DNA from: Chloroflexota bacterium
Lineage (GTDB): Bacteria > Chloroflexota > UBA11872
Direction of reading: 5' to 3'
DNA length: 64,000 bases
NCBI GenBank assembly: GCA_022820025.1
Contig: JAJEGF010000025.1
Location: 145,522-209,521 of the forward strand
This document shows positions 47,192 through 64,000 of this stretch, one piece after another. The position numbers and the translations under genes are program-made. Within the stretch, counting starts at the first letter, position 1, and every line of letters begins with the position of its first letter. Below the pieces are notes generated by a model. It ran no database searches and was not told where the DNA came from. It saw only the letters and a list, made by a program, of their open reading frames with translations.

Positions 47192-47916
47192 GCGCCGCGC
47201 CAGACCCGGATGCGGCCGTGGTGGCCGACTTCGGGAACTGCTTGCGACACGTCGATTTGAGCGCAGAAGGTCACGTCGTCCCAGAGGCCGACGGGTTCGA
47301 GGAGATGAGCGCTGGTAGACGCGGCGAGGGCGGCGTCGGCGGAGGGGTAGGCGTTGGTGACGTGGAGGGCGGTGACGGCGGATTCGTCGAGGTTGAGGTC
47401 GGGTGACTTTGCCAGCAGGCGCTGGACGATGAGGCCGGCGGTGTAGAGGTCGTCGAGGGCGAGGGCGCCCGAGCGGCCGGCGCAGGCGATGGTGATGGTT
47501 GGGGTGTCGGGGTCCTCGAGGAGGTGGTCGGCGACGGCGGTGGCGTTGCGGAGGGCGGCGATGAAGGTGCGGCGGGCGTGGCCCCAGCGTTCGATGGCGT
47601 AGGCGCCGTTGGTGGTGGAGAGGACGGCGCGGCGGCCGGTGAGGTCGATGTGCCGGAACTCGCGGGGGGAGTTGCCGTGGTCGAATCCTTCAGGCGGGAG
47701 GCCGCCGCGTTCGCCGCAGAGGAGCGTGTTGGGGCCGAGTTGCTCGGCGGCCTGGCGGGCGGAGGCGACGTCGCCCGCGATCCAGACTTCGGGGTCGCCC
47801 GCTTCCGCCATGGCGATCAGGGTGGTGGTGGCGCGGATGACGTCGACGACTGCGCAGACGCCGCGGGGATCGGGTTCGAGGGTTCCCGGTAGTAGTTCGA
47901 CGCGGACGAGGGTCAC
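47188..47916 (-). CDS. comB: 2-phosphosulfolactate phosphatase family
   Basis: VVDVIRATTT, GERGG, GNSP, STTNG, LDD. Confidence 0.88.
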   Translation of the reverse strand: MTLVRVELLPGTLEPDPRGVCAVVDVIRATTTLIAMAEAGDPEVWIAGDVASARQAAEQLGPNTLLCGERGGLPPEGFDHGNSPREFRHIDLTGRRAVLSTTNGAYAIERWGHARRTFIAALRNATAVADHLLEDPDTPTITIACAGRSGALALDDLYTAGLIVQRLLAKSPDLNLDESAVTALHVTNAYPSADAALAASTSAHLLEPVGLWDDVTFCAQIDVSQAVPEVGHHGRIRVWRGA

Positions 47917-49277
47917 AGGCGAATGGTCTTCCAGCGGCCGGAGGTGAAGCGGACGAGGGAGGCGATGGCGATGGTGACGTAGTTGACGCCGGCGCCGATC
48001 CACATGCCGGTCAGGCCGAAGCCAAACACGAGGCCCAGGCTCAGGGCCAGGGGTACGCGGATGATCCAGAGGGCCAGCAGGGAGATCAGCAGCATGGCGC
48101 GGGTGTCCCCGGCGCCGCGGAGGGCGCCGGGCATGGTGGTGGCGACGCCCACGAGCGGCATGAAAAGGGCGACGGTGCGCACGGGGAGTTCAGCGGCGTC
48201 GAGGACGGCGGGGTCGGTGGTGAAGGTGGATAGGAGGGCGCGCGGAAACAGGAACATGAGCACGCCGACGGCGGTGGAGACCAGGGTGGCGCCGATGGCG
48301 GCCTCGCGGCCGTAGCGGTGGGCCAGCTCCGGATCGCGGGCGCCGAGGCTCTGGCCGACCGCCGTTGAGGCGGCGATGCCGAGGCCCAGGGACGGCATGT
48401 AGGCGAGCGAAATGATGGGGCCGACGACGTTCTGGGCGGCGAAGGAAACGGTGCCCAGCTGCAGGCCGATGATGCTGAAGGCCATGATGCCGCCGACGGA
48501 GATGAACATCTCGCCGACGGCGGGGCCGGAGACCTTCATCAGGCGGCGTTGCATGATCCAGTCGGGGCGATAGGAACCGAAGGCCCCGGCGCGGTGGGGT
48601 GAGCGGTAGATGGTGGCGAGCATGAAGATGGCGGTGGCAACCCGCGCGACGCCCATGGCTACGGCGATGCCGAGCAGGCCGAAGCCGGCGTTCACCAGGA
48701 GCAGGCCGATTACCAGGTCGACGGCGGCCATCAGCACCGAGCCGAGCATGGGGGTGCGGGTGTCGCCGACGCCGCGCTGGACGGCGCCGACCATGACCAC
48801 CACGGTCTGCAAGGGGGCGCTGAGGGCGCTGATGGCCAGGTATGGGGCGGCCATGGCGACGATGTCCTCGGAGCCGCCGACCAGGCGCAGGATCGGATCC
48901 GCCAGGAAGACGAGGACGAAGACGGAGATGAAGGAGGCGGCGACGGCGGTGAGCATGCCCTGGCGGCCGGCGGTGTGGGCGGTGGCGAGGTCGCGGGCGC
49001 CGTAGGAGCGGGCGACGAGGGCCAGGGCGCCGATGCTCATGCCGAAGAACAACGAGAAGGTGAAGAACATCAGGAAGTTGGAGATGCCGGCGGCGGCCAG
49101 GGCCTCGGCGCCCAGGCGGCCGGCGAGCGCGGTGTTGATCATGAACAGCGCGCTCTGCATCAGGTTCTCGAGCATGGCGGGCCAGCCGAGCGTGAAGAGG
49201 CGGCGGCGGATCTGGGGGAGGGTCAACTCGGGCTGGCCCGTGACGGGGGACGATGCGACCGCGCGTGCGGACGGCAA
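47913..49277 (-). CDS. MATE family efflux transporter
   Basis: LGWPAMLE, RGVGDTRTPM, RGAGDTR; TTG start after GGGAG. Confidence 0.9.
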   Translation of the reverse strand: MPSARAVASSPVTGQPELTLPQIRRRLFTLGWPAMLENLMQSALFMINTALAGRLGAEALAAAGISNFLMFFTFSLFFGMSIGALALVARSYGARDLATAHTAGRQGMLTAVAASFISVFVLVFLADPILRLVGGSEDIVAMAAPYLAISALSAPLQTVVVMVGAVQRGVGDTRTPMLGSVLMAAVDLVIGLLLVNAGFGLLGIAVAMGVARVATAIFMLATIYRSPHRAGAFGSYRPDWIMQRRLMKVSGPAVGEMFISVGGIMAFSIIGLQLGTVSFAAQNVVGPIISLAYMPSLGLGIAASTAVGQSLGARDPELAHRYGREAAIGATLVSTAVGVLMFLFPRALLSTFTTDPAVLDAAELPVRTVALFMPLVGVATTMPGALRGAGDTRAMLLISLLALWIIRVPLALSLGLVFGFGLTGMWIGAGVNYVTIAIASLVRFTSGRWKTIRL

Positions 49278-49444
49278 CCGGCTGCTCCCGTGCTTTGAGG
49301 TGGTGAAGGCGACCCATGCGGATTCTACGGCGGGGGGAGGAATGGGGCGGGGAAATGGGGGGCTCGCGCGCAATAAGAGTTTCTTCCAAGAAACTCTTGA
49401 GGCGGCGCGGGGTGTGTTGGGGAAGGAGCGAGGGGGGAGCAGGA

Positions 49445-49570
49445 GGTTGGGAGCATTTGGTCTGGCTGGGTAGCCAGGGGTGGCCTGGGTGAGGTCTGGT
49501 GGGTGGTTGCTGGTGGGTCCCCGCCCCGGATCGCGTCCGGGGCAGGCTCTCCGCGGCGATGACGGGGTGG
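49445..49570. repeat. Repeat unit A, copy 1 (carries nested CCCCGGATCGCGTCCGGGGCAGGCTCT)
   Basis: Exact blocks GGTTGGGAGCATTTGGT, AGCCAGGGGTGGCCTGGGTG, GATGACGGGGTGG shared with 50061-50213. Confidence 0.8.
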
Positions 49571-50010
49571 TTGCTGCTGCTTTGGCGAGGGAAAGCGCGG
49601 CGGGCAGGGGGAGCGGATGGGGCTGCGGGCGGGCGCCTGGCGGCGGACTTTGGTCTGGGGGTGAAGGGGGGAACTGTCTCCGGCTGGCCGGAGACAGTTT
49701 GGGCGGATTTTTTTGGCGGGTGGGAGGGCGGAAGGGGGAGGCGAGGAGTGCGCGTAGCGAAGTGAGAAGCGAGAAGCGGAGGGGACGGGAAAGCGAGAGC
49801 TGCGAACCGTGAGACGGGCAGGAAGGGGCGAGGGCAGGGACGTGGGATCGGAAGGGGACGGGCAGCGATGGGGAAAGGTTCAGGAGGAAGGCGAGCAGGG
49901 TGGCGAGGCGTGGGGGGAGCGGGAACGCGGCGGAGGCGAGGGGCATTCGGGGTGGGGCGGTATGTCTTACTCAGATAGAGTACGGCGTGGTACCGTGGAA
50001 GTCAAGGGGA

Positions 50011-50045
50011 AGAAGGGGAGAGGGTAGAGGGCAGAGGAGTGAGAC
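50011..50045 (+). repeat. Purine heptamer array ending AGAGGAGTGAGA (solo copy)
   Basis: agaaggg gagaggg tagaggg cagagga gtgagac. Confidence 0.75.
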
Positions 50046-50060
50046 GGAGGGGGAGTAGGT

Positions 50061-50213
50061 GGTTGGGAGCATTTGGTTGAGGCGGGTTGCCAGGGATGCG
50101 GGGATTCGGATGCATCAAGGGCTTGCGGTGATGGGAGCCAGGGGTGGCCTGGGTGCGCTGGGGTAGCGGGTTGCTGCTGGGTCCCGGCCGGGGACGCCGG
50201 GATGACGGGGTGG
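50061..50213. repeat. Repeat unit A, copy 2
   Basis: Same three exact blocks as copy 1. Confidence 0.8.
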
Positions 50214-50281
50214 GGGCCTAGGGAAGGAGTGAGCTGAGAGAAGTGAGCGTTGAGCGAAGAGCGGGAAGAGCTGGATGGCGC

Positions 50282-50377
50282 GGGAGGATTGGGCGGGTTC
50301 GGAACGGGCGATGGACGCGGACGGTCAGGCGATCAAGGGGTTGGGGTGCTGGGTGTGGGAGCGGTTTTGGGGGCGGT
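50282..50377 (+). repeat. Repeat unit B, copy 1 (about 95 bp)
   Basis: 35-bp core CGATGGACGCGGACGGTCAGGCGATCAAGGGGTTG identical at 51016-51050. Confidence 0.85.
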
Positions 50378-50497
50378 TAGGGCGCCGGAGACGGAGTCGC
50401 AGCGGGGTGGGCTGGGTATGATCGTTGACAGGATTCTTTGGGCGGCACTGGGATCCTTCAACGGGCGCGATGGGAGCGTCGCGAGAGGGGACATGGG

Positions 50498-50695
50498 ATG
50501 ACGACCGTACCGGTCCAAGAGCCGCCGTTGACCAGATCGGACCTCCGGGACGAACTGGATCGGACACTGAAGCACTACGCCACGAAGGCTGACGTCGCCA
50601 ACCTCAAGGTCTGGATCGTCGGTCTGTTGCTGGTCGTGGTGCTGAATGTGGTTGGTACCGCCGGGGCCATTGTGGCGGCTTTTCTCGCAGGCTAG
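50498..50695 (+). CDS. Small coiled-coil + C-terminal TM protein (DUF1640/CCDC90-like)
   Basis: GAGGGG RBS; YATKADVANLKVWIVG followed by a hydrophobic tail. Confidence 0.7.
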   Translation: MTTVPVQEPPLTRSDLRDELDRTLKHYATKADVANLKVWIVGLLLVVVLNVVGTAGAIVAAFLAG

Positions 50696-50707
50696 GTCGC
50701 GGGGGCA

Positions 50708-50920
50708 CCCTCGGGAGAGGGTGAAGAGGGGGCTGGCGGAGGGGAGAAGACCCCTCACCGAATGCCGCAGACGGCTTCTGCCTCTCCCCCAGGAGAGGGT
50801 GAAGAGCGGGCGGCACTCCCGGGGATTCTGGTGCCTCTGGAGTTGGGTGCCCGGGGGACCCCTCACCGAATTCGGCGGGTACGCCGAGTCTGCCTCTCCC
50901 CTCGGAGAGGGTGAAGAGCG
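50708..50920 (+). repeat. Three palindromic units CCCCTCACCGAAT-hairpin-CCTCTCCCC-GGAGAGGGTGAAGAG (first is partial)
   Basis: GGAGAGGGTGAAGAG occurs three times; CCCCTCACCGAAT twice. Confidence 0.8.
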
Positions 50921-50988
50921 ACCTGCTGCTGTGACTTTGGTGGCCGCGGTTGCTGCGGGGCTTCGCGGGTGGCGGTGGCGGGGGCCGC

Positions 50989-51082
50989 GGGAGGATTGGG
51001 CGGGTTCGGAAGAGCCGATGGACGCGGACGGTCAGGCGATCAAGGGGTTGTGGTGCTGGCTGTATGAGCGGTTTGGGGCGGT
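50989..51082 (+). repeat. Repeat unit B, copy 2
   Basis: Direct repeat of 50282-50377. Confidence 0.85.
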
Positions 51083-51424
51083 GCGGGCGATAGATCAGTT
51101 GGAGGAGCGCCACATTCGCGCTGCGCAGCTCGTGGGTTAGAATTCCACTCGGTCGACCGGGCTTCGGCCGTGTGTGCCGTTGATCACGGCTTCACACAGC
51201 GTCCACCGAAACTGACATCCTTAATAGGGCGGGTTGTCGATGCCACAGTCGATCAACTTAATATCTATCTACATTTTTTTATCTAGATTTGCCGAATCAA
51301 GCACACGCCGAACCTCGTCTAATCCCTGGTCCGACTTCTCCGGGTCTGCTTTCCACCGCGTTTCTTGGCGTTTGCAGGACTTAGAGCTAGGCGACGGTAA
51401 GTTCCGGTCGGCCTGGAGCGCTCG

Positions 51425-54400
51425 GTGAACGACGCCTCAGCCGGTCGCGAACTGTTCATCGTTGACAATAGCGTAGCCGGATGGACCGGACTCCGTTACC
51501 TCGAAGAATGGTCGAGTATCGCCCGATCCTTTGATATAGCAACTGGATTCTTCGAGATCGGCTCGCTTCTTGCTCTAGATGGAAAGTGGCAAGAGCTTGA
51601 GAAGATTCGCATTTTGATGGGTTCAGAAACAACCCAGCGCACGCGCAAGGCGTTTTTCGACGCCGTCCAGGACCAAGCTGTCAATGCACTCGACCGGAGT
51701 ATTGAATCTGACAAGCAGCGTAATCCCTTCCTACATGGTGTAAAAGATGTTGTGGAGGGACTGCGCAGCGGTCAGATCGAGTGCCGCGTGTACGACAAGG
51801 CAAAGTTCCACGCGAAGACTTACATCACACATTCCAAATTGGAAATTGTTGGGTCGCAGGCCCTGGTAGGTTCGAGCAATTTCACGAAACCAGGCCTCAC
51901 CGAGAACATCGAACTCAACGTACAGATTCAGAGCGCTCGCGAAGTGGCACAGCTACAGGATTGGTTCGAGGCCCATTGGAGTGAAGGAAGGGAAGCAACC
52001 GATGCGGTAATTGAGACGATCGAGCGGCACGTTCGCCTTTTCACACCATTCGAAGTCTATGCGAAGGCACTCCAGGAGTTTTTTCGGGGTCACGAACTGA
52101 CGGCCACCGAATGGGATGAGACCAGATCAAGGGTTTTCCCACAGCTTGACCTTTATCAGAAAGAAGCTTACTGGGCCCTTATGAAGATTGCCCGCCAGCA
52201 CCGGGGGGCATTCCTCTGTGATGGTGTTGGACTTGGAAAGACTTTTGTTGGTCTGATGCTCATCGAGCGGCTAGTTCTCCACGAAGGAAAGCGAGTTGTG
52301 CTTTTTGCGCCAAAGGCTGCGAGAGAGGGCGTGTGGGAGCCACACTTGCGGGAATGGCTCCCTCACATTGGGGGCGGAGCAGCCGACTTCAGCAATTTGG
52401 CTGTGTTTAGCCATACTGATCTCAGCAGGAAAGGCGACTTCCCAGAGCGGTTCAGCCGAGTGGCCGAGTTAGCTGATGTAGTCATCATCGACGAAGCACA
52501 CCATTTCAGAAACCCAGGCACGAGGGGAAGTGAGAGCGGGAAACAGCCGTCTCGCTACTACCGACTCTACGATCTTCTAGACAACGCGGATCGTTCGAAA
52601 ACGTTATTCATGCTTACGGCAACGCCGATCAACAATCGGCTAAGTGACTTTCGTCACATGGCTGAGTTGTTTACGCGTCGCGACGAATCGTACTTTGCCC
52701 GGACTTTGGGTGTGAACAATCTGAGAGCGCACGTGAATCAGATGGAGCGGGCATTTCGCGAAAGCGTAGGTCGTGAAGTGGTGGATGTGGCTGATCAGAT
52801 CACTGAGGCGCAGAGCATCCTTTCGGCCGACGCCATTTTCCGTCAACTAGTAGTTCAACGAAGTCGCGCATACGCTCGGGAGAGCCAGATTCGCGAGACC
52901 GGAAATGCGGCAGCGTTCCCAACGCGACAGCCGCCACAGGTCGCTGCATATTCTATACGACAGTCCTATGGTCAATTGCTGGAACTGTTTGAGAAGGCTT
53001 TCACAAAGGAGAATCCGCTGTTCACGCTTCCCATGTACTATCCTCTCTACTGGTACAAGGGTCCAGACAAGGACGTTGATCCCTTCGAGCAAAACCGTCA
53101 GTTGCAGGTGGTCGGTCTTATCCGGACGAACTTCCTGAAGCGCTTCGAGAGTTCAGTAACAGCCTTTGAGCTATCGTGTAGTCGACTCCTAATGAAACTC
53201 TTAGCCTTCATTGAGGTCCACAGTGAGACTGAGGGTGAAAGAAGGCGTCTTGATCGATGGCAAGCGCAGAATGAAGAGATACTCGACTATATAGCACAAC
53301 GCCAGCGGGACATCTGGGACGATGATGAGGACGAAGCCGAGGACGATGACATTGTTCCCGCAGAGATGATCGATGCTGTTGAGCGTCTTGACCGCAAGGA
53401 ATACGAGGTCGGAGAGATGATCTCCGAGACGTTCCTGGACCTCGATCAGATCGTGCAGTTTCTAAACGAGGCCCGGAAGTTTGAGCCAGGTCACGACGAC
53501 AAGCTCCTCAAGCTGATCCAACTCTTGAAGTCCACAGACCTCGCTGGTCAGAAAGTCCTTGTGTTTTCGGAGTTTGCAGACACGGCTCGGTACCTAAAGC
53601 GCCAGCTCGATGCGGAGAACATCGACGGGGTAGCCCAATTGGATAGCGCGTCCACCGCCAATCGGGCTCAGGTGATCAGGCGCTTTTCGCCGTACTACAA
53701 CGGGAGTTCGCCGGCTGAGCTTAGCAACGCTGGTCTCTCGGAAATCAGGGTCCTCGTATCCACTGACGTGCTGTCAGAAGGACTCAACTTGCAAGATGCC
53801 ACTCGGATGATCAACTACGACATCCACTGGAATCCTGTTCGACTGATGCAGAGGATCGGACGCGTTGACCGCCGAATGAATCCAGAGATTGAGCAGCAGA
53901 TCGCATCCTATCAACCTAATGCCGCAGAGTCGCGTGGAGAGGTCAGCTACTGGAACTTCTTACCTCCCGATGAGCTCAACAACATCCTGACGCTATACAC
54001 AAGGGTTACCCAAAAGACCCTGCTTATTTCTAAGACGCTTGGAATTGAAGGCAAGAAGCTCTTGACGCCCGAAGATAACTTCGAAGCCCTCAGAGAATTC
54101 AACCACGCTTACGAAGGCACACGTACCGCAATAGAAGAGATGCATCTCGAGTACCAGGACATGCTACAGGGTGACCCGACACTGGAAGAGCATCTGAGGC
54201 GCTTACCCGGTTCCACGTTCAGTGGACGGGAGCGGGTGAAGGATGGAGTGCGGGGAGTCTTCTTTTGCTATGCACTTCCTGCCCTTGATGCGGAGATCGG
54301 TGATTTTACCGATGAGGCAGGGTCAACGAGATGGTACCTCTTCGACTTTGACCGAGATGAGACTCTAGAAGAACCTGGCGAGATCGCCAATAGCATTAGG

Positions 54401-54565
54401 TCGGATCGCACGAGCCTTCGCCGATGTTCTACGAGTGAAAAGATGCTTGTCAAAGTCCGAGAGAAAGTCGAGAGGCACATAAGGAACACCTACCTCAAGC
54501 GGGTCGATGCTCCGATAGGAGTGAGTCCGTCGCTCAAGTGCTGGATGGAGCTCAACGAAAGCTAA
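51425..54565 (+). CDS. PLD-family nuclease fused to SNF2-type SF2 helicase
   Basis: FHAK...GSSN PLD motif; CDGVGLGKT, DEAHHFRN, LTATP, SEGLNLQ, QRIGRVDR. Confidence 0.9.
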   Translation: MNDASAGRELFIVDNSVAGWTGLRYLEEWSSIARSFDIATGFFEIGSLLALDGKWQELEKIRILMGSETTQRTRKAFFDAVQDQAVNALDRSIESDKQRNPFLHGVKDVVEGLRSGQIECRVYDKAKFHAKTYITHSKLEIVGSQALVGSSNFTKPGLTENIELNVQIQSAREVAQLQDWFEAHWSEGREATDAVIETIERHVRLFTPFEVYAKALQEFFRGHELTATEWDETRSRVFPQLDLYQKEAYWALMKIARQHRGAFLCDGVGLGKTFVGLMLIERLVLHEGKRVVLFAPKAAREGVWEPHLREWLPHIGGGAADFSNLAVFSHTDLSRKGDFPERFSRVAELADVVIIDEAHHFRNPGTRGSESGKQPSRYYRLYDLLDNADRSKTLFMLTATPINNRLSDFRHMAELFTRRDESYFARTLGVNNLRAHVNQMERAFRESVGREVVDVADQITEAQSILSADAIFRQLVVQRSRAYARESQIRETGNAAAFPTRQPPQVAAYSIRQSYGQLLELFEKAFTKENPLFTLPMYYPLYWYKGPDKDVDPFEQNRQLQVVGLIRTNFLKRFESSVTAFELSCSRLLMKLLAFIEVHSETEGERRRLDRWQAQNEEILDYIAQRQRDIWDDDEDEAEDDDIVPAEMIDAVERLDRKEYEVGEMISETFLDLDQIVQFLNEARKFEPGHDDKLLKLIQLLKSTDLAGQKVLVFSEFADTARYLKRQLDAENIDGVAQLDSASTANRAQVIRRFSPYYNGSSPAELSNAGLSEIRVLVSTDVLSEGLNLQDATRMINYDIHWNPVRLMQRIGRVDRRMNPEIEQQIASYQPNAAESRGEVSYWNFLPPDELNNILTLYTRVTQKTLLISKTLGIEGKKLLTPEDNFEALREFNHAYEGTRTAIEEMHLEYQDMLQGDPTLEEHLRRLPGSTFSGRERVKDGVRGVFFCYALPALDAEIGDFTDEAGSTRWYLFDFDRDETLEEPGEIANSIRSDRTSLRRCSTSEKMLVKVREKVERHIRNTYLKRVDAPIGVSPSLKCWMELNES

Positions 54566-54569
54566 GGCA

Positions 54570-57500
54570 ATGTCGATTGAATACCGAACTAAGCTCGCCA
54601 CCATTCGACGCTTTGATCAGTTGATCGAGTTTCTACGCGACGAGATGGGCTGGCCGATCGTCAGCGACGACTTTGAGGAGATGACCTTCGAATACAGCGC
54701 AGAGGAGCTTGGGATTGACGCTGTGAATGCAGCGAAGATTCAAGAGATCAGACGCCTACGTCCGTTGGCCGTGAATCAGCCCTGGGGAGTATTCTTAGTC
54801 AGATTTGAGCCGAAGCGGCTTCCGGTCGTGGCCTTACGCAGCATCCTCGGTCGTGTTGCGCAAAAGAGACGCGCCTCGTCGGTCACAGCAGATCAGCCCA
54901 CCTGGGCGATGGACGACTTACTCTTCATTTCGAATTACGGTGTGGGAGAAAGTAGGCAAATCAGCTTTGCCCACTTCTCTGCATCACCCAGCAACAAGCT
55001 TCCGACTCTCAAAGTGATCACATGGGATGAGATGGATACAGCGCTGCATCTTGATCAGGTGGCTCGCGAACTCACCGAAGGCCTCGCGTGGCCAGTCGAC
55101 GAGGACAACATCAACGCTTGGCGCGATAAGTGGCGCACTGCATTCACGTTGGTACATCGAGAGACAATTACAACCGCCCAAAAGCTCTCCGTTCGTCTCG
55201 CTGAGCTCGCCAGTGTGACCCGCGACCGAATCAACGGAGCACTTGCAATTGAGAGCGATAGCGGCCACGTAACTCGCCTCATGCACGCATTTGCTGAGAC
55301 TCTGGTACAAGACCTTGATCCTGACAGCTTCGCCGACATGGTTGCTCAGACCATTGCTTACGGTCTCCTCTCAGCGCGCGTTACGGATCCTCAGAGGTCC
55401 TCTGGAGACGTTTTGGTCCGTCATATGCGAACCAATCCGCTCCTACGCGAGTTGATGACAGCTTTCTTGGATTCTTCTGGCCAACAGGGTGCCATGGGCA
55501 TCGACTTCGATGAACTGGGCATTGCAGAAGTCATCGAACTCCTAGACAACGCAAATATGGATGCAGTAGTCCGTGACTTCGGCGATAAGAACCCACGCGA
55601 AGATCCAGTTATCCACTTCTATGAGAGTTTCCTCACGGAGTATGACAAGGAAAAGAAGGTCGCGAGGGGCGTCTTTTATACACCGCGCCCTGTCGTTTCA
55701 TACATTGTGCGTTCAATTGATAAACTGCTGCGAACCAAGTTCGGCCTGACCGACGGTCTAGCTGACGTAGCTACTTGGAAACAAATGACGGAAAGACACA
55801 CTGGGATGGTGATTCCCGAAGGGATCTCGCCGGACCAGGCTTTTGTACAAGTACTAGATCCGGCTACAGGCACCGGAACTTTTCTGGTCGAAGTCATAGA
55901 TTTGATCCATAGCACCCTTGTCGGTAAGTGGAAGGCGCAGGGCTACCGGCGTCATGACATTGACACGCTTTGGAACGAGTATGTCACTAACCATCTCCTC
56001 ACACGGCTCCATGGATATGAAATTCTGATGGCACCATACGCCATTGCACACGTGAAATTTGGACTAAAGCTGTACGAGACAGGATACAGGTTCGAATCCC
56101 AAGAACGGGCAAAGATTTACCTCACTGACGCGCTAGAACCTGCACAGAGCTTTTCCGACTTGATGGACTTCGCTATACCGGCACTTGCGCACGAGGCGAG
56201 AGCGGTCAATCAAATAAAGAGCGAAAGTAGATTTACAGTGATATTTGGAAACCCACCGTATCGAGGCGAGTCGGCTAACAAAGGAGGCTGGATATCGGAT
56301 TTATTACGGGGAACACGGGGCAAACAGCGCACCGAGAACTACTTTGAGGTCGACGGTGCCCCACTCAAGGAGCGCAATCTAAAGTGGTTGAACGATGACT
56401 ACGTTAAGTTCCTTCGCCTAGCTCAATCGGAGATCGAGAGATCTAGATTTGGAGTTATCGGCTTCATTACAAATCACAGTTATCTGGACAATCCGACATA
56501 TCGCGGTATGCGCGAGAGTCTTCAAGCGGCCTTTGGCAGTTGTAGCTTCCTGGATCTACACGGAAATTCCAACAAGGGAGAACGGACGCCCGAAGGAAGG
56601 AGCGACAAGAACGTATTTGACATTCGGCAAGGCGTCGCAATTAGTCTGTATGTCAGTACGCCGAGCTCTCGTCGTGACCGCGCTGAAGTGTCCCACGCAG
56701 ATCTATGGGGTGAACGGGAATCAGGTGAAGGAGGCGGGAAATACGGATGGTTGTCAACCAATGACATTAATAGCACTGATTGGACAGTGTTGAATCCGGA
56801 GTCGCCGCGATACCTGTTTATTCCCCGCGACGAAACACTTGCGAAGGAGTATGGTAGAGGGTGGAGCATTGTCGATGTGTTCCCCATTAATGCAACGGGC
56901 ATCGTTAGTAAGAGGGATCACATTGCCTACCACTTCGACAAAGACAACCTCTATCGAACACTCAATGACTTTTCCACTATGCCCGTAGACGAGATTCGTC
57001 AGAGATATAGATTTCGAGAGAGCCGGGACGGAAAGCTTGAGTTTGTTAAGGATCATGTAGTGAGTTATGGTATCAAAGAAGGATATGTACATCAATGCCT
57101 ATATCGTCCGTTCGACCACAGGTGGACATACCATACGGACAGGTCTCGTGGATTCCTTGGGTGGCCTGTATACGACGTTATGCGTCACATGACGGCGGGT
57201 CCGAATCTTGGGTTGGTAACCACCCGCCAATGCCAGCGGAATTGGAGTGCATTGGTTTCCAGTACGATAATAGCTCACAAGGCATTGGCTACGTATGATA
57301 TAAACTCACTGTTTCCCTTGTACACCTTTCCAACCGAAGGCGAAGAGCAGCTTGGCTTAGATCGTCAACCGAATCTTAGCATCGAATTCGTCTCAGCACT
57401 TGGATCAGCCCTTGGACTTGGCTTCGTGTCCGACGGCACTGGTGACCTGATGTCATCCTTCGGGCCAGACGACGTGTTCAACTATATCTATGCGGTGTTT

Positions 57501-57974
57501 CACAGTCCGCAGTATCGTAGTCGCTATGCGGACTTCCTAAAGGCCGACTTCCCGCGGGTACCGCTTGTGACAGACCGCTGTCGGTTCGCGGCTCTCAGCG
57601 ATCTCGGCAAGCGCCTGACGTCTGTTCACCTGTTAGAGACTGAGAGGTCCGGTGCTCCTACTTTTCCTCAAATTGGTGATAATCTCATTAGAAGAGTTCA
57701 GTATGCGCCGCCCACGGGCACTACACCAGGTCGGGTCGAAATCAGCCGAGATCAGTACTTTGAGGGCATAGCTCCGGAGATTTGGGAATTTGCAATAGGC
57801 GGCTACCGGCCTGCGGAGAAATGGCTGAAGGATCGGAAAGGCCGAGTCCTCGCCGACCATGAAGCTGATCAATACCGAAAGATCGTAGCGGCCCTTGTGG
57901 ACACTCATTACCTAATGAACGAAATCGACAATCTGATCGACCAGCATGGTGGCTGGCCCCACGCGTTCCTGTAG
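54570..57974 (+). CDS. N6-adenine DNA methyltransferase (gamma) with Type ISP-like C-terminal target-recognition domain
   Basis: GVFYTP, DPATGTGTFL, GNPPY; YRPFD, FLKADFPRVP, IGGY...KWLKDRKGR. Confidence 0.88.
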   Translation: MSIEYRTKLATIRRFDQLIEFLRDEMGWPIVSDDFEEMTFEYSAEELGIDAVNAAKIQEIRRLRPLAVNQPWGVFLVRFEPKRLPVVALRSILGRVAQKRRASSVTADQPTWAMDDLLFISNYGVGESRQISFAHFSASPSNKLPTLKVITWDEMDTALHLDQVARELTEGLAWPVDEDNINAWRDKWRTAFTLVHRETITTAQKLSVRLAELASVTRDRINGALAIESDSGHVTRLMHAFAETLVQDLDPDSFADMVAQTIAYGLLSARVTDPQRSSGDVLVRHMRTNPLLRELMTAFLDSSGQQGAMGIDFDELGIAEVIELLDNANMDAVVRDFGDKNPREDPVIHFYESFLTEYDKEKKVARGVFYTPRPVVSYIVRSIDKLLRTKFGLTDGLADVATWKQMTERHTGMVIPEGISPDQAFVQVLDPATGTGTFLVEVIDLIHSTLVGKWKAQGYRRHDIDTLWNEYVTNHLLTRLHGYEILMAPYAIAHVKFGLKLYETGYRFESQERAKIYLTDALEPAQSFSDLMDFAIPALAHEARAVNQIKSESRFTVIFGNPPYRGESANKGGWISDLLRGTRGKQRTENYFEVDGAPLKERNLKWLNDDYVKFLRLAQSEIERSRFGVIGFITNHSYLDNPTYRGMRESLQAAFGSCSFLDLHGNSNKGERTPEGRSDKNVFDIRQGVAISLYVSTPSSRRDRAEVSHADLWGERESGEGGGKYGWLSTNDINSTDWTVLNPESPRYLFIPRDETLAKEYGRGWSIVDVFPINATGIVSKRDHIAYHFDKDNLYRTLNDFSTMPVDEIRQRYRFRESRDGKLEFVKDHVVSYGIKEGYVHQCLYRPFDHRWTYHTDRSRGFLGWPVYDVMRHMTAGPNLGLVTTRQCQRNWSALVSSTIIAHKALATYDINSLFPLYTFPTEGEEQLGLDRQPNLSIEFVSALGSALGLGFVSDGTGDLMSSFGPDDVFNYIYAVFHSPQYRSRYADFLKADFPRVPLVTDRCRFAALSDLGKRLTSVHLLETERSGAPTFPQIGDNLIRRVQYAPPTGTTPGRVEISRDQYFEGIAPEIWEFAIGGYRPAEKWLKDRKGRVLADHEADQYRKIVAALVDTHYLMNEIDNLIDQHGGWPHAFL

Positions 57975-58150
57975 CGGCTAAGTGAAGTGAAATACGGACC
58001 GTCCTAGCTCCAGAGGCCTCTTGGTGCATGTCGCGACATGGTGGAGAGAGCGATCGTGGGATCATTGGGCGAAGTCGGTGGTGATTGGTCGATGGCTGTG
58101 CAGGAGAGGATCGGGAACGTGAGATGTCTTGAGAGACCTCGGCCCGAAAA

Positions 58151-58183
58151 CCCCTCACCCTGACCCTCTCTCCCAGGAGGGGG
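58151..58183 (+). repeat. CCCCTCACCCTGACCCTCTCTCCCAGGAGGGGG palindromic element
   Basis: Same family as 8068 and 50750; sits at the right edge of the low-GC island. Confidence 0.7.
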
Positions 58184-58253
58184 ATTGAGGTCGGCTCGCC
58201 TGGGGTGGCACGGACTACCATGACGTAATCCCGATTGGCGAGAGGTCCCCCCT

Positions 58254-59426
58254 ATGTCAGTGCGCCGTGTCGTGGTTTGGGTTGGGGTGGCGGCGTTGGC
58301 GGCGGTGGGTGGTGTGGCGGTGGCGAGGCGGGGGGTGCCGGAGGGGTTGGTTGATTGGGGGTTGGCGGGGCGGACGGCAAGGCGGTTGGCGGGGGAGCCG
58401 GAGGGGTGGCGGCCGGATTCGGAGCTGATTGCGCATTACGACGGGATTGTCCGCAGGAGCTTTGAGGCGGTTTCGGCGTATACGGGTGTGCCGATGGAGC
58501 TGGGGTCGGACGAGGTTCGGGTGCTGGGTCGGGCGGATTGGATCGATGCGAACCTGGTGAATTTTGAGCGGTTGCTGGCGCCGCTGGCGGTGGCGTACCA
58601 ACACACGCGCACGGGTTCGGGGGCGCTGGGGCGGGTGGCGGCGCACGGGACGCGGTTTACGGTGACGGGGCAGATTGCGTTGCTGCTGGGGTACCTGGGG
58701 CGGCGGGTGCTGGGTCAGTACGACATCCCGATCCTGGACGCGGAGGCGGAGTCGGCGGGGATCTATTTCGTTGAACCGAATCTCGAGCGGGTGGCGGCGA
58801 AGGCCGGCGTTGACCTGGAGGCGCTGCGGTTGTGGGTGGCGTTGCATGAGTCGACGCATGCGTACCAGTTCCGCGTAGGCGATCCGCCGTGGTTGCGGGG
58901 GTATACGGCGGGGCTGATCCAGGATTACCTGGCGGAGGCGATCCGGGCGCTGGAATCCGGGGAACGGCTGGGGCAGCGGCTGCGGGATATGTGGCGGCGG
59001 TTCGACCGGGACGATCCGGCGGGCACGGGCCTGATGCGGCTGGCGCTGACGGACGCGCAAGCTGAATCGCTGGGGCGGATCCAGGCGCTGATGACGGTGA
59101 TGGAGGGGTATAGCAATCACGTGATGCGGGCGACGGGTCGCGAGGTGATTCCGGGGTATGAGGTGCTGGAAGCGCGGATGAAGGCGCGGGAACGGGCGCA
59201 GGGGGCGTCGTCGCGGGTGCTGAACCGGTTGCTAGGGCTGGATTTGAAGCTGGAGCAGTACAAGGTTGGGGAGGCGTTTGTGGAAGAGGTGGTTGGGTTG
59301 CGGGGGTTGGGGTTTATGAATGGGGTGTGGGAGGGGCCGGAGATGTTGCCGACGTTGGAGGAGACGAGGGATGCGGAGGGGTGGATAGAGAGAATCGAGG
59401 GGAGAGGGGAGAGGGAAGAGGAGTGA
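58254..59426 (+). CDS. Zinc-dependent metalloprotease (zincin-like, DUF2342 type)
   Basis: RADWIDAN, WVALHESTH (HExxH), MEGYSNHVM, KLEQY. Confidence 0.88.
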   Translation: MSVRRVVVWVGVAALAAVGGVAVARRGVPEGLVDWGLAGRTARRLAGEPEGWRPDSELIAHYDGIVRRSFEAVSAYTGVPMELGSDEVRVLGRADWIDANLVNFERLLAPLAVAYQHTRTGSGALGRVAAHGTRFTVTGQIALLLGYLGRRVLGQYDIPILDAEAESAGIYFVEPNLERVAAKAGVDLEALRLWVALHESTHAYQFRVGDPPWLRGYTAGLIQDYLAEAIRALESGERLGQRLRDMWRRFDRDDPAGTGLMRLALTDAQAESLGRIQALMTVMEGYSNHVMRATGREVIPGYEVLEARMKARERAQGASSRVLNRLLGLDLKLEQYKVGEAFVEEVVGLRGLGFMNGVWEGPEMLPTLEETRDAEGWIERIEGRGEREEE

Positions 59427-59428
59427 GA
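59388..59428 (+). repeat. Purine heptamer array, left of four-helix-bundle gene
   Basis: gagaggg gagaggg aagagga gtgaga. Confidence 0.75.
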
Positions 59429-59529
59429 GGGGAAGGGGAGGAAGATGGGGAGGAAGATGGGATGGGAATGGGGGAGGATGGGCGTGAGGTTGGGGCGGTT
59501 TCTGGGCGGGGAGCTGAGGGAAATGGCGG

Positions 59530-59904
59530 GTGCATTACCGTGAGACGATTCTGTGGCAAAAGGCGATGCGGATCGCGCGCGAGGTCTATGGGCTGACGCC
59601 GCGGCTTCCGCGCGAAGAAACGTATGGGATGCGCGCCCAGATCACCCGGGCGGCGGTGTCGATTCCAAGCAATGTTGCGGAAGGGTGGACGCGCGACACG
59701 GCGAGAGACAAGGCGCGATTCCTGGCAATTGCGCAAGGGTCACTGGCTGAAACTGAGACCCTGCTGACGCTCTGTGAAGACCTCGGATGGTTCCCTACGC
59801 CTGAGACGCAGAACCTGCGCGGCCTGCTGGACGAAGTGAGCCGGATTTTGACGGTGATGAGGCGGAGGAGAAGGGAAGAGGGGTTGAAGAAGGGAAGAGG
59901 GTAG
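59530..59904 (+). CDS. Four-helix-bundle protein (23S rRNA IVP / Avd-like family)
   Basis: WQKAM, PREETYG, RAAVSIPSNVAEG, AQGSLAETET. Confidence 0.92.
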   Translation: MHYRETILWQKAMRIAREVYGLTPRLPREETYGMRAQITRAAVSIPSNVAEGWTRDTARDKARFLAIAQGSLAETETLLTLCEDLGWFPTPETQNLRGLLDEVSRILTVMRRRRREEGLKKGRG

Positions 59905-59954
59905 AGGGAACGAGGAAGGTGAGAGGGGAGAAGGGAGAGGGGAGAGGAGTGAGA
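59888..59954 (+). repeat. Purine heptamer array, right of four-helix-bundle gene
   Basis: aagaggg tagaggg ... gagaggg gagaagg gagaggg gagagga gtgaga. Confidence 0.75.
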
Positions 59955-61403
59955 AGGAAGAAGAGACGGGGTGGGGTGTCGCGGCGGGGGGTGTTGGGAT
60001 TGGGGCTGGCGGCTGGGGCGGGGGTGGTGTTGGGGGCTTGTGGGGAGGCGGAGGTGGTGAAGGTGGAGCGGCCGGTGTTGCCGAGTGCGGGGCGGGCGAC
60101 GACGGTGTCGATGGAGGTAACTGAGCGGGCGCCGAGTGGGGACGGTGGGTTGCCGGCGGCGGGGGCGGAGTATCCGATCTCGCTGGCGCTGCCGACGTTT
60201 GGCGGGTCGAACGTGGGGGTGGAGCAGATTCTGGTCTCGGCACGGTCGGGCGTGCGCGCAGAAACGCAGGGCCGGTACCGGTATTCGGACGTTCCGCTGC
60301 AGTCGATCCTCGGATACCGCTGGAATTACACGGAGTTCCTGGACGACGGCGCGGGCGCGGCGCGGGCGGACCTGGTGGTGCTGGAGGGCTGGGACCTGGA
60401 GAACCTCGTGTCCAACGCGCTGCTGGAACCGCTGGACGATCACCTGACGAGCGACGCGCGGTTCGATCCGGACGATTACTGGCCGGGGATCCTGGCGGCG
60501 GGCCAGATCGACGGGGTTCAGTATGCGCTGCCGGTGGCGGCGGCGCCGTGGGTGACGGTGGTGAACCTGGATCTGGCGAAGGCGGCGGGATTTGCCGTAC
60601 CGCCGCGCGAGGCCTGGGATGCGGATGCGTTTGTGCGCGGCGCGGCGGCGATGCATCAAACGCCGAACGTGGAAGGACCGAGGCCGACGGTTGGGGTGGG
60701 TATTGACGTTGAACCGTTGTGGATGGCGCCGGATCAGCTTTGGAACGACGCGCCGAGCTTTGTGTTCTTGCAGTCGACGCTGGGGGCACTGCCGGATGGG
60801 CAGGGGTCGTTTGCCGGGCTGCGCTCGGCGGAGGCGCGGGCGACGCTGGAGACGTTCCGGGAACTGGCGACACGGTACGGCATCTCACCGGACCAGCGGA
60901 GACGGAACGTGGACGCGTCTGACCTGATCGACGACGGGCTGCTGGGCATGGCGGTGTTCGGGCTGTCGGGCCGGTGGTTTGGGAATCTGATCGGCAGTTT
61001 TCTGCCCAGCAACAACGTGCTGTATCCGTTTCCGAATTTTGGGGACGGGCGGACGCCGGCGTTTCTCTGGCTGATGTTGGGAATCGGCGCGGGCAGGGCC
61101 AATCCACGGATTGCCTACGACGCGCTGCGAGCGCTGGAACGGCACGCGGCGGCGGGGGCCAATGTGCCGGGGTGGCGAACCTCGGCGGAGGATCTGCAGC
61201 GGCGGTTCCCGTCGTATCGGGACGACGAAGCGCAGATGGTGGTGGACCTGATGCAGAACGCCTCGTACGTGAGGCTGAGCCGGGCGGCATGGGGGGCGTT
61301 TATCGCGGAGGTGGACGCCGGGATCATCCTTGAGGGTGTGAGCGCGCAGGAGGCGCTGGACGGGGTGGCGCGGCGGCTGGAGGAGCTGGGCGCGCGGGTG
61401 TAG
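59949..61403 (+). CDS. Extracellular solute-binding lipoprotein (Tat signal)
   Basis: SRRGVL twin-arginine motif plus LGAC lipobox; LLEPLD, GVQYALP; start approximate. Confidence 0.82.
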   Translation: MRRKKRRGGVSRRGVLGLGLAAGAGVVLGACGEAEVVKVERPVLPSAGRATTVSMEVTERAPSGDGGLPAAGAEYPISLALPTFGGSNVGVEQILVSARSGVRAETQGRYRYSDVPLQSILGYRWNYTEFLDDGAGAARADLVVLEGWDLENLVSNALLEPLDDHLTSDARFDPDDYWPGILAAGQIDGVQYALPVAAAPWVTVVNLDLAKAAGFAVPPREAWDADAFVRGAAAMHQTPNVEGPRPTVGVGIDVEPLWMAPDQLWNDAPSFVFLQSTLGALPDGQGSFAGLRSAEARATLETFRELATRYGISPDQRRRNVDASDLIDDGLLGMAVFGLSGRWFGNLIGSFLPSNNVLYPFPNFGDGRTPAFLWLMLGIGAGRANPRIAYDALRALERHAAAGANVPGWRTSAEDLQRRFPSYRDDEAQMVVDLMQNASYVRLSRAAWGAFIAEVDAGIILEGVSAQEALDGVARRLEELGARV

Positions 61404-61410
61404 GGGCCGA

Positions 61411-62523
61411 TCAGACGGCGGTGAGGCGTTGGGGGCTGAAGGGGTGGATGGGGTAGGCGGGGTCTTGACCCGTGAGAAGGCGGGCGACGATCTGCCCGGT
61501 GTGCCAGCTCATGGTGATGCCGTGGGTGTGGTGGCCGGTGGCGAGGTAGAGGCCGCTGCGGGGGTCGCGGCCGATGAGGGGGAGGCCGTCGGTGGGTTCG
61601 GGGCGGAAGCCGGTCCAGATTGAGGCGAGAGGGCAGTCCGCCAGGGCCGGCAGCGTGGCCAGGGCACCGTTGAGCATTTGCTGGACGGCGCCGGCGCGCA
61701 GGCGTCGATCGAAGCCGACGCGCTCCTTGGTTGCGCCGAAGACGACGCGGCCGTCGGACCGCTGGGCGAGGCTGCCACCAGGGACGTGGAGGACGTGGCG
61801 GAGGCGGAGGTGGGGCGCGTCGAAGGCGAGCATGTGGCCCTTGGAGGGCACGACGGGGACGCCGGGCAGGAGGTCGGGCAGCCAGGCGCCGGTGGCGAGG
61901 ACGACCTGGTCGGCGTGGAGGTCGCCCTGGACGGTCTGGACGGTGGGATTGGGGCCAGTGCGGACGGCGGTGACGTCGGTTCCCTGGTGGACGTGGATGC
62001 CGGCGGCGAGCAGGGCGCGGTGGACGATGGGCGGCCAGCGCTGGGTATCGACCTGGCCGTCGGGGTAGACGGCGGCGCCGGTGATGTCGGGCGGCAGCAA
62101 GGGTTCGCGGCGGCGGGCTTCGTCGGGTTCGAGGAATTCGACATCGAGGGCGGCTTCCCGTTGCCAGGCGACGTGGTTGCGCAGCTGTTGGCGTTGTTCG
62201 TCGGTTCGGGCGAGGCCCATGGTGGGGCCCCTGGAAAAACCGACGTTGAGTCCGGTGAGTTCTTCGAGGAGCTGGGCGAATTCGGGGAAGGCGTCGCGAC
62301 CGTCAAGCCGGAGGCGGAACAAGGGGGTGTCGTGGTCGGCGTCGTACTGGGCGCAGATGAGGCCGCCGGCGGCGGACGAGGCTTCGCCGCAGATGCGTCC
62401 GCGTTCGAGGACGGCCACGCCGAGGCCACACCGCCGCGCGGCCAATGCCACGGCGCAGCCGACGATGCCACCGCCGACGACCGCGACATCGACGTTCTTC
62501 AGATCATCGTTCATGGGGGACAT
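61411..62523 (-). CDS. thiO: Glycine oxidase ThiO / DAO-family FAD oxidoreductase
   Basis: VVGGGIVG, ASSAAGGL, KGHML, WTGFRP, TGHHTHGI. Confidence 0.78.
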   Translation of the reverse strand: MSPMNDDLKNVDVAVVGGGIVGCAVALAARRCGLGVAVLERGRICGEASSAAGGLICAQYDADHDTPLFRLRLDGRDAFPEFAQLLEELTGLNVGFSRGPTMGLARTDEQRQQLRNHVAWQREAALDVEFLEPDEARRREPLLPPDITGAAVYPDGQVDTQRWPPIVHRALLAAGIHVHQGTDVTAVRTGPNPTVQTVQGDLHADQVVLATGAWLPDLLPGVPVVPSKGHMLAFDAPHLRLRHVLHVPGGSLAQRSDGRVVFGATKERVGFDRRLRAGAVQQMLNGALATLPALADCPLASIWTGFRPEPTDGLPLIGRDPRSGLYLATGHHTHGITMSWHTGQIVARLLTGQDPAYPIHPFSPQRLTAV

Positions 62524-62875
62524 TCAGCAACGATCAGCAAGTTCCCGAGGATTTTGGCCCAAGTCATTGTGGCGAACCGTACGGGTTCAGCGTCGTGAGG
62601 GCCAGGTGTCACGAACGAGCGGGGCCGCGGCGGCCGGCTAGCGCCTGGATGGCGGCAGCTTCCGGGGGAATTTATGATGGCGGCGAGGTTGGTTTGGTGC
62701 ATAATGGCCGCATACCGGACAACGGCGTTGGGCCGTGTATTCCGAAACGCTGAGGGGGTGATACATATGGGTGATGCTAGTCGTGGCTTTTCGAGCGCTG
62801 CCGTATGTGAGGTGAGCGCCGGGTAACGTCGCGTGACACCCGGGTACGGATTTAGCCGCGCCCGAAAACGCTACG

Positions 62876-62909
62876 AAAAACGAGCGGTCCATTTGGTGGG
62901 CCGCTCGTT
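62876..62909 (-). terminator. Intrinsic terminator-like hairpin
   Basis: 13-bp stem AACGAGCGGTCCA / TGGGCCGCTCGTT with a T5 tract on the minus strand. Confidence 0.6.
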
Positions 62910-63029
62910 GAACTTAAGGGGCCGGGTCGTCTTTCCCGGTTGTATGCCTGGCCGGCAGCGGGCGGTGAAATGAGATTCGCGTCATGCGTCACAATGCGGG
63001 CAATGTTGCTGACCTGAGCGAACCCGACG

Positions 63030-64000
63030 ATGACCACCGCCGCACCGCCAATCGAGATTGACTTCGACCGCCTCCTCGACACCTTCGTCGCCCTCCTTTC
63101 CGTGGACAGCTACTACGGCGACGAGGAACGCGTCGTCGCCGTCATCAAGCCGCGGATGGAAGGGCTGGGGATTGCGTGGCGGTCGGATCCGCACGGGAAC
63201 CTGATCGGGGAGTGGCCGGCGCGGGGGAGAGACGGCGAGCCGATCATCCTGAACGCGCACATGGACACGGTGCGGCCGACGCCGGAGATGACGCCGGTGG
63301 TGAAGGACGACGGGGTGTATTCGGACGGCTCGTCGGTGTTGGGGGCGGACGACAAGGCGGGGGTGGCCGCCATCATGGAGGCGGTGTGGGCTTACCACGA
63401 GTCTGGGGAGCCGCACGGGCCGGTGGAACTGCTGTTTACGACCGGGGAGGACGTGGGGCACATCGGCTCGAAGGCGTTTGACGCCAATGACGTAGTTGGA
63501 CGCCGCTGTTATGTGCTGGATGCGGGCGGGCCGGTGGGCAACGTGGTGATGCGGGCGCCGGGACAACGCCGCTTCAACTTCACCTTTCGGGGCAAGGCGG
63601 CGCACGCGGGGGTGGAGCCGGAGCTTGGGGTGAGCGCGATCGGCATGGCGGCAAGGGCGATCGACCGGATGCCGCTGGGGCGGGTGGACGAGATTACGAC
63701 GGCGAACGTGGGGATCATCTCCGGCGGCGAGGCGTACAACATCGTCGCGCCGGAGGCGGAGGTGACGGTGGAAACCCGCAGCCTTTCCGAGGAGCGGCTG
63801 GAGTCGCAGGTGGCGGACATCGTGGGCGCGGCGGAGCAGGCGGCCTCTGACTTTGGCGGCGACGTGGATATCGAGACGCACACGTTCTATACGGCCTACC
63901 AACTGGACGAAGGGGATCCCGCGGTGGCACTGGCGGACGCCGCGATTGCGGCCGCCGGGATTGAGCCGCAACACGTGAGCACGGGCGGCGGCAGCGACGC
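63030..64000 (+). CDS. M20/M25/M40 metallopeptidase (peptidase T-like), runs off window edge
   Basis: Hand translation: LNAHMDTV, LGADDKAG, GEDVG, GKAAHAG, STGGGSD. Confidence 0.9.
   Translation, partial: MTTAAPPIEIDFDRLLDTFVALLSVDSYYGDEERVVAVIKPRMEGLGIAWRSDPHGNLIGEWPARGRDGEPIILNAHMDTVRPTPEMTPVVKDDGVYSDGSSVLGADDKAGVAAIMEAVWAYHESGEPHGPVELLFTTGEDVGHIGSKAFDANDVVGRRCYVLDAGGPVGNVVMRAPGQRRFNFTFRGKAAHAGVEPELGVSAIGMAARAIDRMPLGRVDEITTANVGIISGGEAYNIVAPEAEVTVETRSLSEERLESQVADIVGAAEQAASDFGGDVDIETHTFYTAYQLDEGDPAVALADAAIAAAGIEPQHVSTGGGSD

Follow-up and report, generated by a model that had tools for sequence, protein, structure and literature searches.

A probable host-sparing gene cassette of the PF05635 four-helix-bundle family, with heptamer-repeat arms, at a stop/start junction in a Chloroflexota bacterium

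Introduction

How does a small gene come to stand at the junction of two protein-coding genes and leave both of them intact? The question is raised by a 64,000-nucleotide stretch of a Chloroflexota metagenome-assembled scaffold (contig JAJEGF010000025.1; the whole stretch analyzed is hereafter called the window), in which a gene for a four-helix-bundle (4HB) protein of 124 aa with a GTG start (59530-59904, plus strand; PF05635/TIGR02436) lies between two genes of the same strand. Upstream is a gene for a Zincin_2/DUF2342 F420-associated metallopeptidase of 390 aa (58254-59426; PF10103, E = 2.8e-70; TIGR03883), hereafter the zincin, and downstream a gene for an extracellular solute-binding protein of 484 aa (59949-61403 in the public gene call; SBP_bac_8, E = 1.4e-8). 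The reading developed here, which we regard as probable though well short of certain, is that of a promoterless, host-sparing 4HB cassette with repeat arms: the segment ~59375-59978 would be one copy of a horizontally spreading PF05635 cassette that settled at the stop-start overlap of the zincin and solute-binding genes.

Intervening sequences in rRNA made the PF05635 or 'S23p' family known in the 1990s; scattered copies occur in large numbers in many genomes, and to our knowledge neither its function nor its mode of spread has ever been explained. Intervening sequences (IVSs) of 23S rRNA that carry an S23p open reading frame (ORF) have terminal inverted repeats and are excised by RNase III, the stem of the Coxiella IVS being 28 bp long, and two hypotheses regarding them are still open, namely that they are a 'remnant of transposition' or a 'mobile element whose ORF encodes a mobility factor' (PMC4990558). 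The literature outside subscription journals, so far as searched, mentions neither the nesting of 4HB genes in ORFs nor the arms described below, and this 'do-no-harm' type of gene cassette is apparently undescribed. New relative to the literature searched are the defined heptamer-repeat arms that travel with the cassette and the position of most close relatives inside the anti-phage genes HmaA or HmaB with the host reading frame preserved.

Repeat arms travel with the four-helix-bundle gene

At a threshold of at least 90% A+G over 40 nt, the purine-rich tracts in the 64 kb are limited to 49997-50055, 59375-59478 and 59856-59978, the latter two of which bracket the 4HB gene. The left arm (59375-59478, plus strand) takes in the final ~30 nt and the TGA stop of the zincin ORF and contains a heptamer array at 59397-59440 (period 7, 6.1 copies, 80% matches by Tandem Repeats Finder) followed by a 12-nt tandem repeat at 59435-59461. 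The right arm (59856-59978, plus strand), with arrays of periods 7 and 14 at 59872-59961, overlaps the 3′ tail (Arg/Glu/Lys-rich) of the 4HB gene on one side and the beginning of the solute-binding gene on the other; its period-7 array at 59886-59947 has 9.0 copies with 74% matches by the same program. Within these arms the 12-mer AGAGGAGTGAGA occurs exactly at 59417-59428 and at 59943-59954 (both plus strand), and a third exact copy lies at 50033-50044. The first copy holds the zincin stop (TGA, 59424-59426), and the second holds the GTG (59949-59951) called as the start of the solute-binding gene. An alternative GTG start for the latter gene, judged from the sequence, lies at 59975, and the N-terminus of its product has an RR and lipobox-type signal (..SRRGVLGLGLAAGAGVVLGAC).

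The same arms accompany 4HB genes elsewhere. At the locus with the closest homologue (L028, 91% identity) the 4HB gene sits in an unrelated context, between an acetyltransferase gene and a ParE-like gene, with purine arms on both sides, three exact copies of AGAGGAGTGAGA and a 25-nt word common to both flanks. The arms of L029 (84% identity) are similar to those of L028, and both loci have the same ~60-nt 5′ leader as the window (59470-59529, plus strand), in which GAGGGA lies ~9 nt ahead of the GTG start of the 4HB gene. Further intergenic copies with arms were found at L110, L113 and L116, the last of these inside an ABC-transporter operon. The exact 12-mer adjoins 4HB genes at ~17 distinct places, the window included, usually in plus orientation upstream and minus orientation downstream, and a periodicity of 7, 14 or 21 was present in the arms of nearly all examined loci, with units such as GAGGAGT and CTCACTC. 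The repeat core of the arms is the 7-nt-periodic GGAGTGAG, and their motifs include GGCGAGGAGTGAG and AGAGGAGTGAGA. The window, L028 and L110 each have the stop codon of the upstream gene within the arm. In 6/6 intergenic cases and in all in-ORF cases the 4HB gene is in sense orientation to the upstream gene. The arms thus belong to the cassette and travel with the 4HB gene.

Much of what the initial annotation had said about these ends has stood. The exact 12-mers and their placement over the zincin stop and the solute-binding start were found as described, and its proposal that the flanks of other 4HB genes be examined for 7-nt periodicity and shared 12-mers was borne out at the loci above. 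Its tandem heptamers are genuine yet imperfect, given match rates of 80% and 74%, and the left array is partly native zincin tail, because the 5′ part of the left arm (..CGAGGGGAGAGGGAA) is common to the window and to the sister locus L014, which has no cassette. The claim that purine heptamer ends define the element needs revision in a second respect: the arms do belong to the cassette, but those typical of the family are inverted, with purines at the 5′ end and pyrimidines at the 3′ end. Less favorable is the outcome for the idea that the 12-mer is a target-site duplication. In simulations with Markov tract pairs of equal composition, a word of at least 12 nt was shared in 24-32% of trials; the longest word common to both window tracts is the 15-mer GGGAGAGGGGAGAGG (P ~0.03-0.04, composition-matched simulation), and the 12-mer match between the window tracts is weak evidence taken alone. 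As a duplication that would prove transposition the 12-mer was set aside, being at chance level locally and, as a piece of the arm consensus, present in other cassettes too.

Could the tracts be coincidental? The purine-rich sequence might represent only a low-complexity zincin tail, the head of the solute-binding gene and ribosome-binding sequences, around an ordinary horizontally acquired 4HB gene without defined ends. The sister loci L011 and L014 do have purine-rich tails or spacers and no gene, and the 12-mer is not significant locally. However, there are only three such tracts in 64 kb, and the recurrence of the same arms and 12-mer around 4HB homologues in many unrelated contexts largely refutes this explanation, to which we give hardly any credence.

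Arm sequence without a 4HB gene is also present in the window. An orphan arm unit (50004-50055, plus strand) includes the third 12-mer copy, and its GAAGAAGGGGAGAGGGTAGAGGG is identical at 22 of 23 positions to GAAGAAGGGAAGAGGGTAGAGGG of the right arm (59886-59908). Two more arm-like tracts lack a 4HB gene (~49738-49800 and ~50215-50270), and a tblastn search of the window with all 120 homologues detected nothing beyond chance that would represent a second 4HB gene or pseudogene.

The orthologous junction in sister genomes

A scan of species-representative genomes yielded 14 loci with a zincin 74-94% identical to that of the window (13 of them at 83-94%), all in Chloroflexota metagenome-assembled genomes, and in 0/14 was a 4HB gene found at the junction. 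The window offers a clean presence/absence case at an orthologous junction. At L004 the junction is bare (..GTCGAAGG AGAGGAGTGAGA GGGGGG..) with a single copy of the 12-mer; the zincin TGA lies inside this copy and a GTG in the solute-binding frame begins one base upstream, giving a GTGA overlap. L011 and L014 have no insert either, and have a purine-rich spacer of 29-70 nt. Four loci (L005, L006, L016 and L017) carry at the same junction an insert of 0.9-1.1 kb with a DUF559 gene (PF04480, E = 1.4e-33) and a hairpin repeat different from the 4HB arms; the DUF559 TGA overlaps the solute-binding GTG (e.g., L005 8010-8013), and the insert is a second small-cassette type that keeps the stop/start overlap. 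In L005 the DUF559 endonuclease-like gene (7162-8013) is flanked by CCCTCACCC..CCCTCTCCCTCAAGGGCGAGGG hairpin repeats, as it is in L006, L016 and L017. At L009 and L010 the junction contains ~850 bp of hairpin repeats. These two loci (OZ253587.1, 3.77 Mb and 3.28 Mb) represent the zincin locus and an identical hairpin insert twice in one chromosome, which points to a recent large-scale duplication or else to an assembly artefact.

Since bare, DUF559, hairpin and 4HB states are all found at this one junction, it is a fast-turnover insertion hotspot. On a neighbor-joining tree of zincins the window grouped with the DUF559-bearing L005 and L016, with the bare L004 and L014 next closest, and gain of the 4HB gene in the window lineage appears to be the more parsimonious reading, although it is not proven. 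The initial annotation had predicted an empty junction with a GTGA overlap, which is what L004 has, and its view of the 4HB gene as inserted at the zincin/solute-binding junction accords with an insertion or indel polymorphism across the sisters. It had also pointed to similar stop/start overlaps elsewhere in the window, for which further GTGA/ATGA candidates are present (e.g., at 44157 and 45857), and to the lack of a mobility enzyme, in agreement with the fact that no transposase, integrase or reverse transcriptase was among the genes called within ~10 kb either side.

The opposite polarity was considered as well. The cassette or its arm may be old at the junction, with the sisters having lost the gene through direct-repeat recombination or slippage and some of them having later gained DUF559 genes or hairpins. 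Direct repeats favor deletion, every junction variant is purine-rich, AGAGGAGTGAGAGGGGG at L004 equals an arm unit of L028, and the L014 spacer has a degenerate GGCGAG..GTGAGAGGGGGA unit; because these two junctions look like solo arms, loss by direct-repeat deletion is possible. On the zincin tree, ancestral presence would nevertheless call for loss or replacement three or more times independently, none of the 14 relatives has retained the 4HB gene, and the closest 4HB homologues are found at unrelated loci. We regard it as unlikely, though it deserves to be kept in mind.

Most close relatives are nested in Hma genes

A total of 80 metagenome loci were fetched with the 4HB protein. In most of the copies with ≥60% identity, an upstream purine arm is paired with its reverse complement on the downstream side. 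The arms of L031 are 73 nt long and 85% complementary (fold −248 kcal/mol, z-score −8.4), and flank-to-flank duplex z-scores of −2 to −8, as judged against mononucleotide shuffles only, were common, also among homologues of 40-50% identity. A separate observation concerns the composition of the arms at all cassette loci (e.g., L031 2394-2501 and 2858-2929): the core of the purine arm, GAGGAGTGA, is similar to an extended Shine-Dalgarno sequence, and the pyrimidine arm CTCACTCCTC is similar to the 16S anti-Shine-Dalgarno sequence.

Among the 35 loci at ≥60% identity, 26 had a −1 frame free of stops over the full length of the 4HB gene, where synonymous-codon shuffles gave an expectation of 4.9; below 50% identity this was so at 1 of 17 loci (1.1 expected by the same procedure). 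The +1 frame always contained 2-8 stops. The open −1 frame extends for hundreds to thousands of bases on both sides as part of a host ORF, and its freedom from stops therefore indicates that the host ORF runs through the cassette. The host is HmaB, a DUF1156 adenine methylase, at ~20 loci (PADLOC, 1615 bits), HmaA, a SNF2/DUF3883 helicase, at three (PADLOC, 1264 bits) and another N6_N4 methylase at two. Hma is a candidate defence system reported in 26 phyla (PMC8565338).

Without the insert, HmaB gives a one-piece alignment, at 77% identity, to intact DUF1156 genes on plasmids of Thermus, Meiothermus and Burkholderia, in which a short loop (..NPEARTKEALMEREWKG..) takes the place of the 190-230-aa insert. 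At 72.5% nucleotide identity, mean identity was 76% for the 4HB frame vs 44% for the −1 frame, so that selection acts on the 4HB frame; translated in the host frame, the insert is low-complexity and rich in G, S, D and R, with that same 44% conservation. The same host genes also contain ORF-less arm hairpins elsewhere, again in frame, and arm units within ORFs are often 21 nt, a length that preserves the reading frame. At the boundaries of the HmaB insertions no common target motif or duplication could be cleanly defined, with ..R.EW.. on the left and ..R.WKG on the right being suggestive. The logic of harmless insertion that was put forward for the window holds there, and more strikingly in these in-ORF relatives with their open host frame.

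Other irregularities were noted in the same host genes. In L037 (~3850-4100) and L077 a further selfish gene is nested in the HmaB ORF: an IS200-like Y1 transposase domain (PF01797, RAYT-like) lies in the host reading frame, with proline/glycine-rich repeat translations at its borders. In L031 a single in-frame stop (3316-3318) splits the HmaB frame between two long open segments, and in L078 a shift of the HmaA frame falls within the purine arm (2446-2456), while the homologue L043 is in one frame throughout. The L031 stop and the L078 frameshift could be sequencing errors, decay or recoding.

These loci bear on a further alternative, in which the element is non-autonomous and was moved by a transposase encoded elsewhere, with AGAGGAGTGAGA as its 12-bp target-site duplication. 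Exact 12-mers at both ends and the single copy at the bare L004 site are what such an event would leave; the ORF-less arm hairpins are possibly derivatives of the kind known as miniature inverted-repeat transposable elements (MITEs), and L037 and L077 have an IS200-like transposase in frame in the same host genes. On the other side, the 12-mer belongs to the interior of the arm repeat, with three copies around L028, copies in either orientation at other places and the orphan at 50033, and is expected by chance in the proportion of tract pairs given above, arm lengths and units vary between loci, the window copy lacks the terminal inverted repeats that many relatives have, and no transposase was called within ~10 kb. 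Transposition of this sort is, in our judgment, distinctly improbable.

The window copy is an intergenic direct-arm variant

The window copy forms a closest group with L028 and L029 (84-100% identity), whose members are intergenic, have purine arms on both sides and contain 5-6 stops in the −1 frame (5 in the window copy). No pyrimidine arm was found anywhere in the window, and the window copy has no inverted repeat, a fold z-score of +0.45 and a flank duplex z-score of −1.8, which amounts to no stem. The window element can therefore be described as a variant of the family with direct arms and an intergenic position. Its 4HB gene is located between two protein-coding genes and not within a 23S rRNA helix; Rfam detected no rRNA in the window (two tRNAs only), no intron or riboswitch RNA family at E ≤1 in 59200-60100, and no match at gathering score, group I and II introns included, at six cassette loci.

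The four-helix-bundle protein

The product of the window gene matched PF05635 with 116.1 bits (cutoff 33.8, E = 1e-33) and TIGR02436 with 112.4 bits (cutoff 24, E = 1.1e-32). An AlphaFold2 (AF2) model had four helices and a mean predicted local distance difference test score (pLDDT) of 91.6. The best Foldseek matches were 2GSC and 2RLD ('S23 ribosomal protein family'; TM-scores 0.77-0.89), both crystal entries comprise chains A-E, and the 4HB protein is probably pentameric. Next came the Bordetella phage accessory variability determinant (Avd, 4DWL) and ribonucleoprotein structures of diversity-generating retroelements (DGRs), with TM-scores of 0.76-0.87 at ~15% identity. In three pairs with the window gene, the ratio of nonsynonymous to synonymous substitution rates was 0.16 against L028, 0.16 against L029 and 0.07 against L110, so the protein is functional and the intact gene evolves under purifying selection. 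The protein matched no PADLOC defence model itself. More than 100 homologues at 72-91% identity came from Acidobacteriota, Chloroflexota, Myxococcota, Gammaproteobacteria and Cyanobacteria, and between phyla the protein retains 73-91% identity. Chloracidobacterium validum and Halochromatium roseum are among the named sources of homologues. No relatives were found among IMG/VR viral contigs, and PLSDB plasmids yielded no homologue at or above 60% identity, those present being mostly cyanobacterial; on these two results a phage or plasmid vehicle was rejected.

The resemblance to Avd raises the possibility of RNA-mediated spread, in which a reverse transcriptase acting in trans would copy the cassette transcript with the Avd-fold protein as cofactor, followed by target-primed integration at purine-rich sites. 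Avd is the partner of the DGR reverse transcriptase, and the fold and a weak hidden Markov model relation to it point in this direction, as do the strict sense orientation relative to host transcription and the variable-length tandem arms, which fit slippage. However, the window protein scored only 24.5 bits with the Avd model NF033474 (cutoff 80) and 23.8 bits with PF22296 (cutoff 40), no reverse transcriptase, template repeat or variable repeat is nearby, and no A-tract or other retroelement hallmark is present. We consider this route very unlikely, and the window element is not a DGR, because the Avd match is below cutoff and no reverse transcriptase was called within ~10 kb.

Proposed mechanism and its weight

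How might a cassette of this kind enter a stop/start junction? The core GGAGTGA would unite a Shine-Dalgarno-like GGAG, a GTG start and a TGA stop, which suggests that insertion at a GTGA overlap is harmless; with the upstream stop kept in the left arm and the downstream start in the right arm, neither neighbor is damaged. A consensus scan of 58100-60100 detected no sigma-70-like promoter or terminator, and the sense-oriented cassette would presumably be expressed by read-through transcription. In place of a transposase-made target duplication we propose recombination: arm repeats may recombine with matching purine-rich stop/start sequence, leading to gain, loss or exchange, such that a solo arm would be the integration site for a circle or for incoming DNA, and would also be what remains after deletion between direct arms. 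That gain and loss proceed by recombination at the arms specifically is a conjecture we hold with less than even confidence. The conserved Avd-fold protein may act on nucleic acid for maintenance or spread of the element.

Several observations weigh against the cassette reading. The left arm is in part native zincin tail, and the local match of the 12-mer is not significant by itself. A second full cassette is absent from the 64-kb window, and the window copy has neither the inverted arms nor the open −1 frame typical of most relatives. The polarity of the indel is ambiguous, given that the L004 and L014 junctions resemble solo or degenerate arm units. Translation through the in-ORF inserts was deduced solely from the lack of stops, and the metagenome loci are phylogenetically non-independent, many of them representing one HmaB lineage.

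A broader form of the cassette reading can be entertained. PF05635 cassettes might constitute a distinct class of mobile elements without a recognizable nuclease or recombinase, whose heptamer-repeat arms, with a core (GGAGTGAG) reminiscent of Shine-Dalgarno, start and stop signals, would give access to two types of site, the interior of ORFs (notably Hma genes, with the −1 frame as translated linker) and stop/start junctions, and leave the host intact at both. The Avd-fold protein would bind the arms and promote spread or retention, the ORF-less hairpins would be non-autonomous members, and the origin of 23S IVSs would find its explanation. We put this forward tentatively and doubt it more than we favor it.

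If these readings are true, nested cassettes would represent a new strategy of genetic parasitism, or of regulation, of defence genes. They would also cause systematic errors of annotation, since the host gene is split by gene callers, and the old IVS question would become experimentally tractable.

The surrounding sequence

Upstream of the zincin gene lies a low-GC island (51425-57974; 0.50-0.55 vs ~0.67) that encodes an HKD+Snf2 protein (PADLOC C3a139) and a Type IIG/ISP restriction-methyltransferase. The island looks acquired in the window lineage, since in relatives the homologue of the ~50080-50210 repeats stands directly upstream of the zincin gene. The region 49300-51400 is a large non-coding, repeat-rich stretch and holds the three orphan arm-like tracts. 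It contains direct repeats of 93 nt (at 50279 and 50986, 91%) and 62 nt (at 49469 and 50133), hairpin repeats (CCTCTCCCC..GGAGAGGG) at 50699-50920, and a small ORF (50438-50695) for a membrane-anchored protein with no Pfam match. GC skew of the plus strand is strongly positive over 45000-64000, at 0.13-0.47 per kb outside the low-GC island, and is positive also over minus-strand genes (e.g., MATE and ComB, 47188-49290).

Comparison with known systems

The nearest known system is the 23S rRNA IVS of Leptospira and Coxiella. It shares the protein family with the window gene, its sporadic distribution likewise suggests horizontal transfer, mobility is unexplained in both, and most 4HB relatives have, as IVSs do, complementary termini in a long stem around the ORF. 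In contrast to IVSs, the cassettes stand between or inside genes for proteins instead of in rRNA, the purine arms of the window copy are direct and form no stem, and the in-ORF copies keep the host frame open, for which there is no rRNA counterpart. DGR Avd proteins share the four-helix-bundle fold, and the DivGenRetAVD and bAvd models match weakly; the differences are the below-cutoff scores, the ~15% identity and the lack of a reverse transcriptase, template or variable repeat within ~10 kb.

Rickettsia palindromic elements, reportedly described by Ogata et al. in 2000, and other in-frame MITEs are palindromic repeats that enter ORFs and leave the reading frame unbroken. The ORF-less arm hairpins in HmaB behave in the same way, whereas a 4HB cassette brings a gene of its own in an overlapping frame, its arm motif is unrelated, and the window copy is intergenic. 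Insertion sequences and MITEs differ in that the window copy has no terminal inverted repeats and no transposase called within ~10 kb. Integron-type cassettes resemble the element in being a single small promoterless ORF, in sense orientation to the host operon, at a junction that holds alternative cassettes in sisters; unlike them, it has no integrase nearby and its arms are tandem heptamer arrays. Finally, the DUF559 genes with hairpins like those of repetitive extragenic palindromic (REP) sequences belong to another protein family and have another flanking repeat family, but they occupy the same junction in L005, L006, L016 and L017, and there too the GTGA overlap with the downstream gene is kept.

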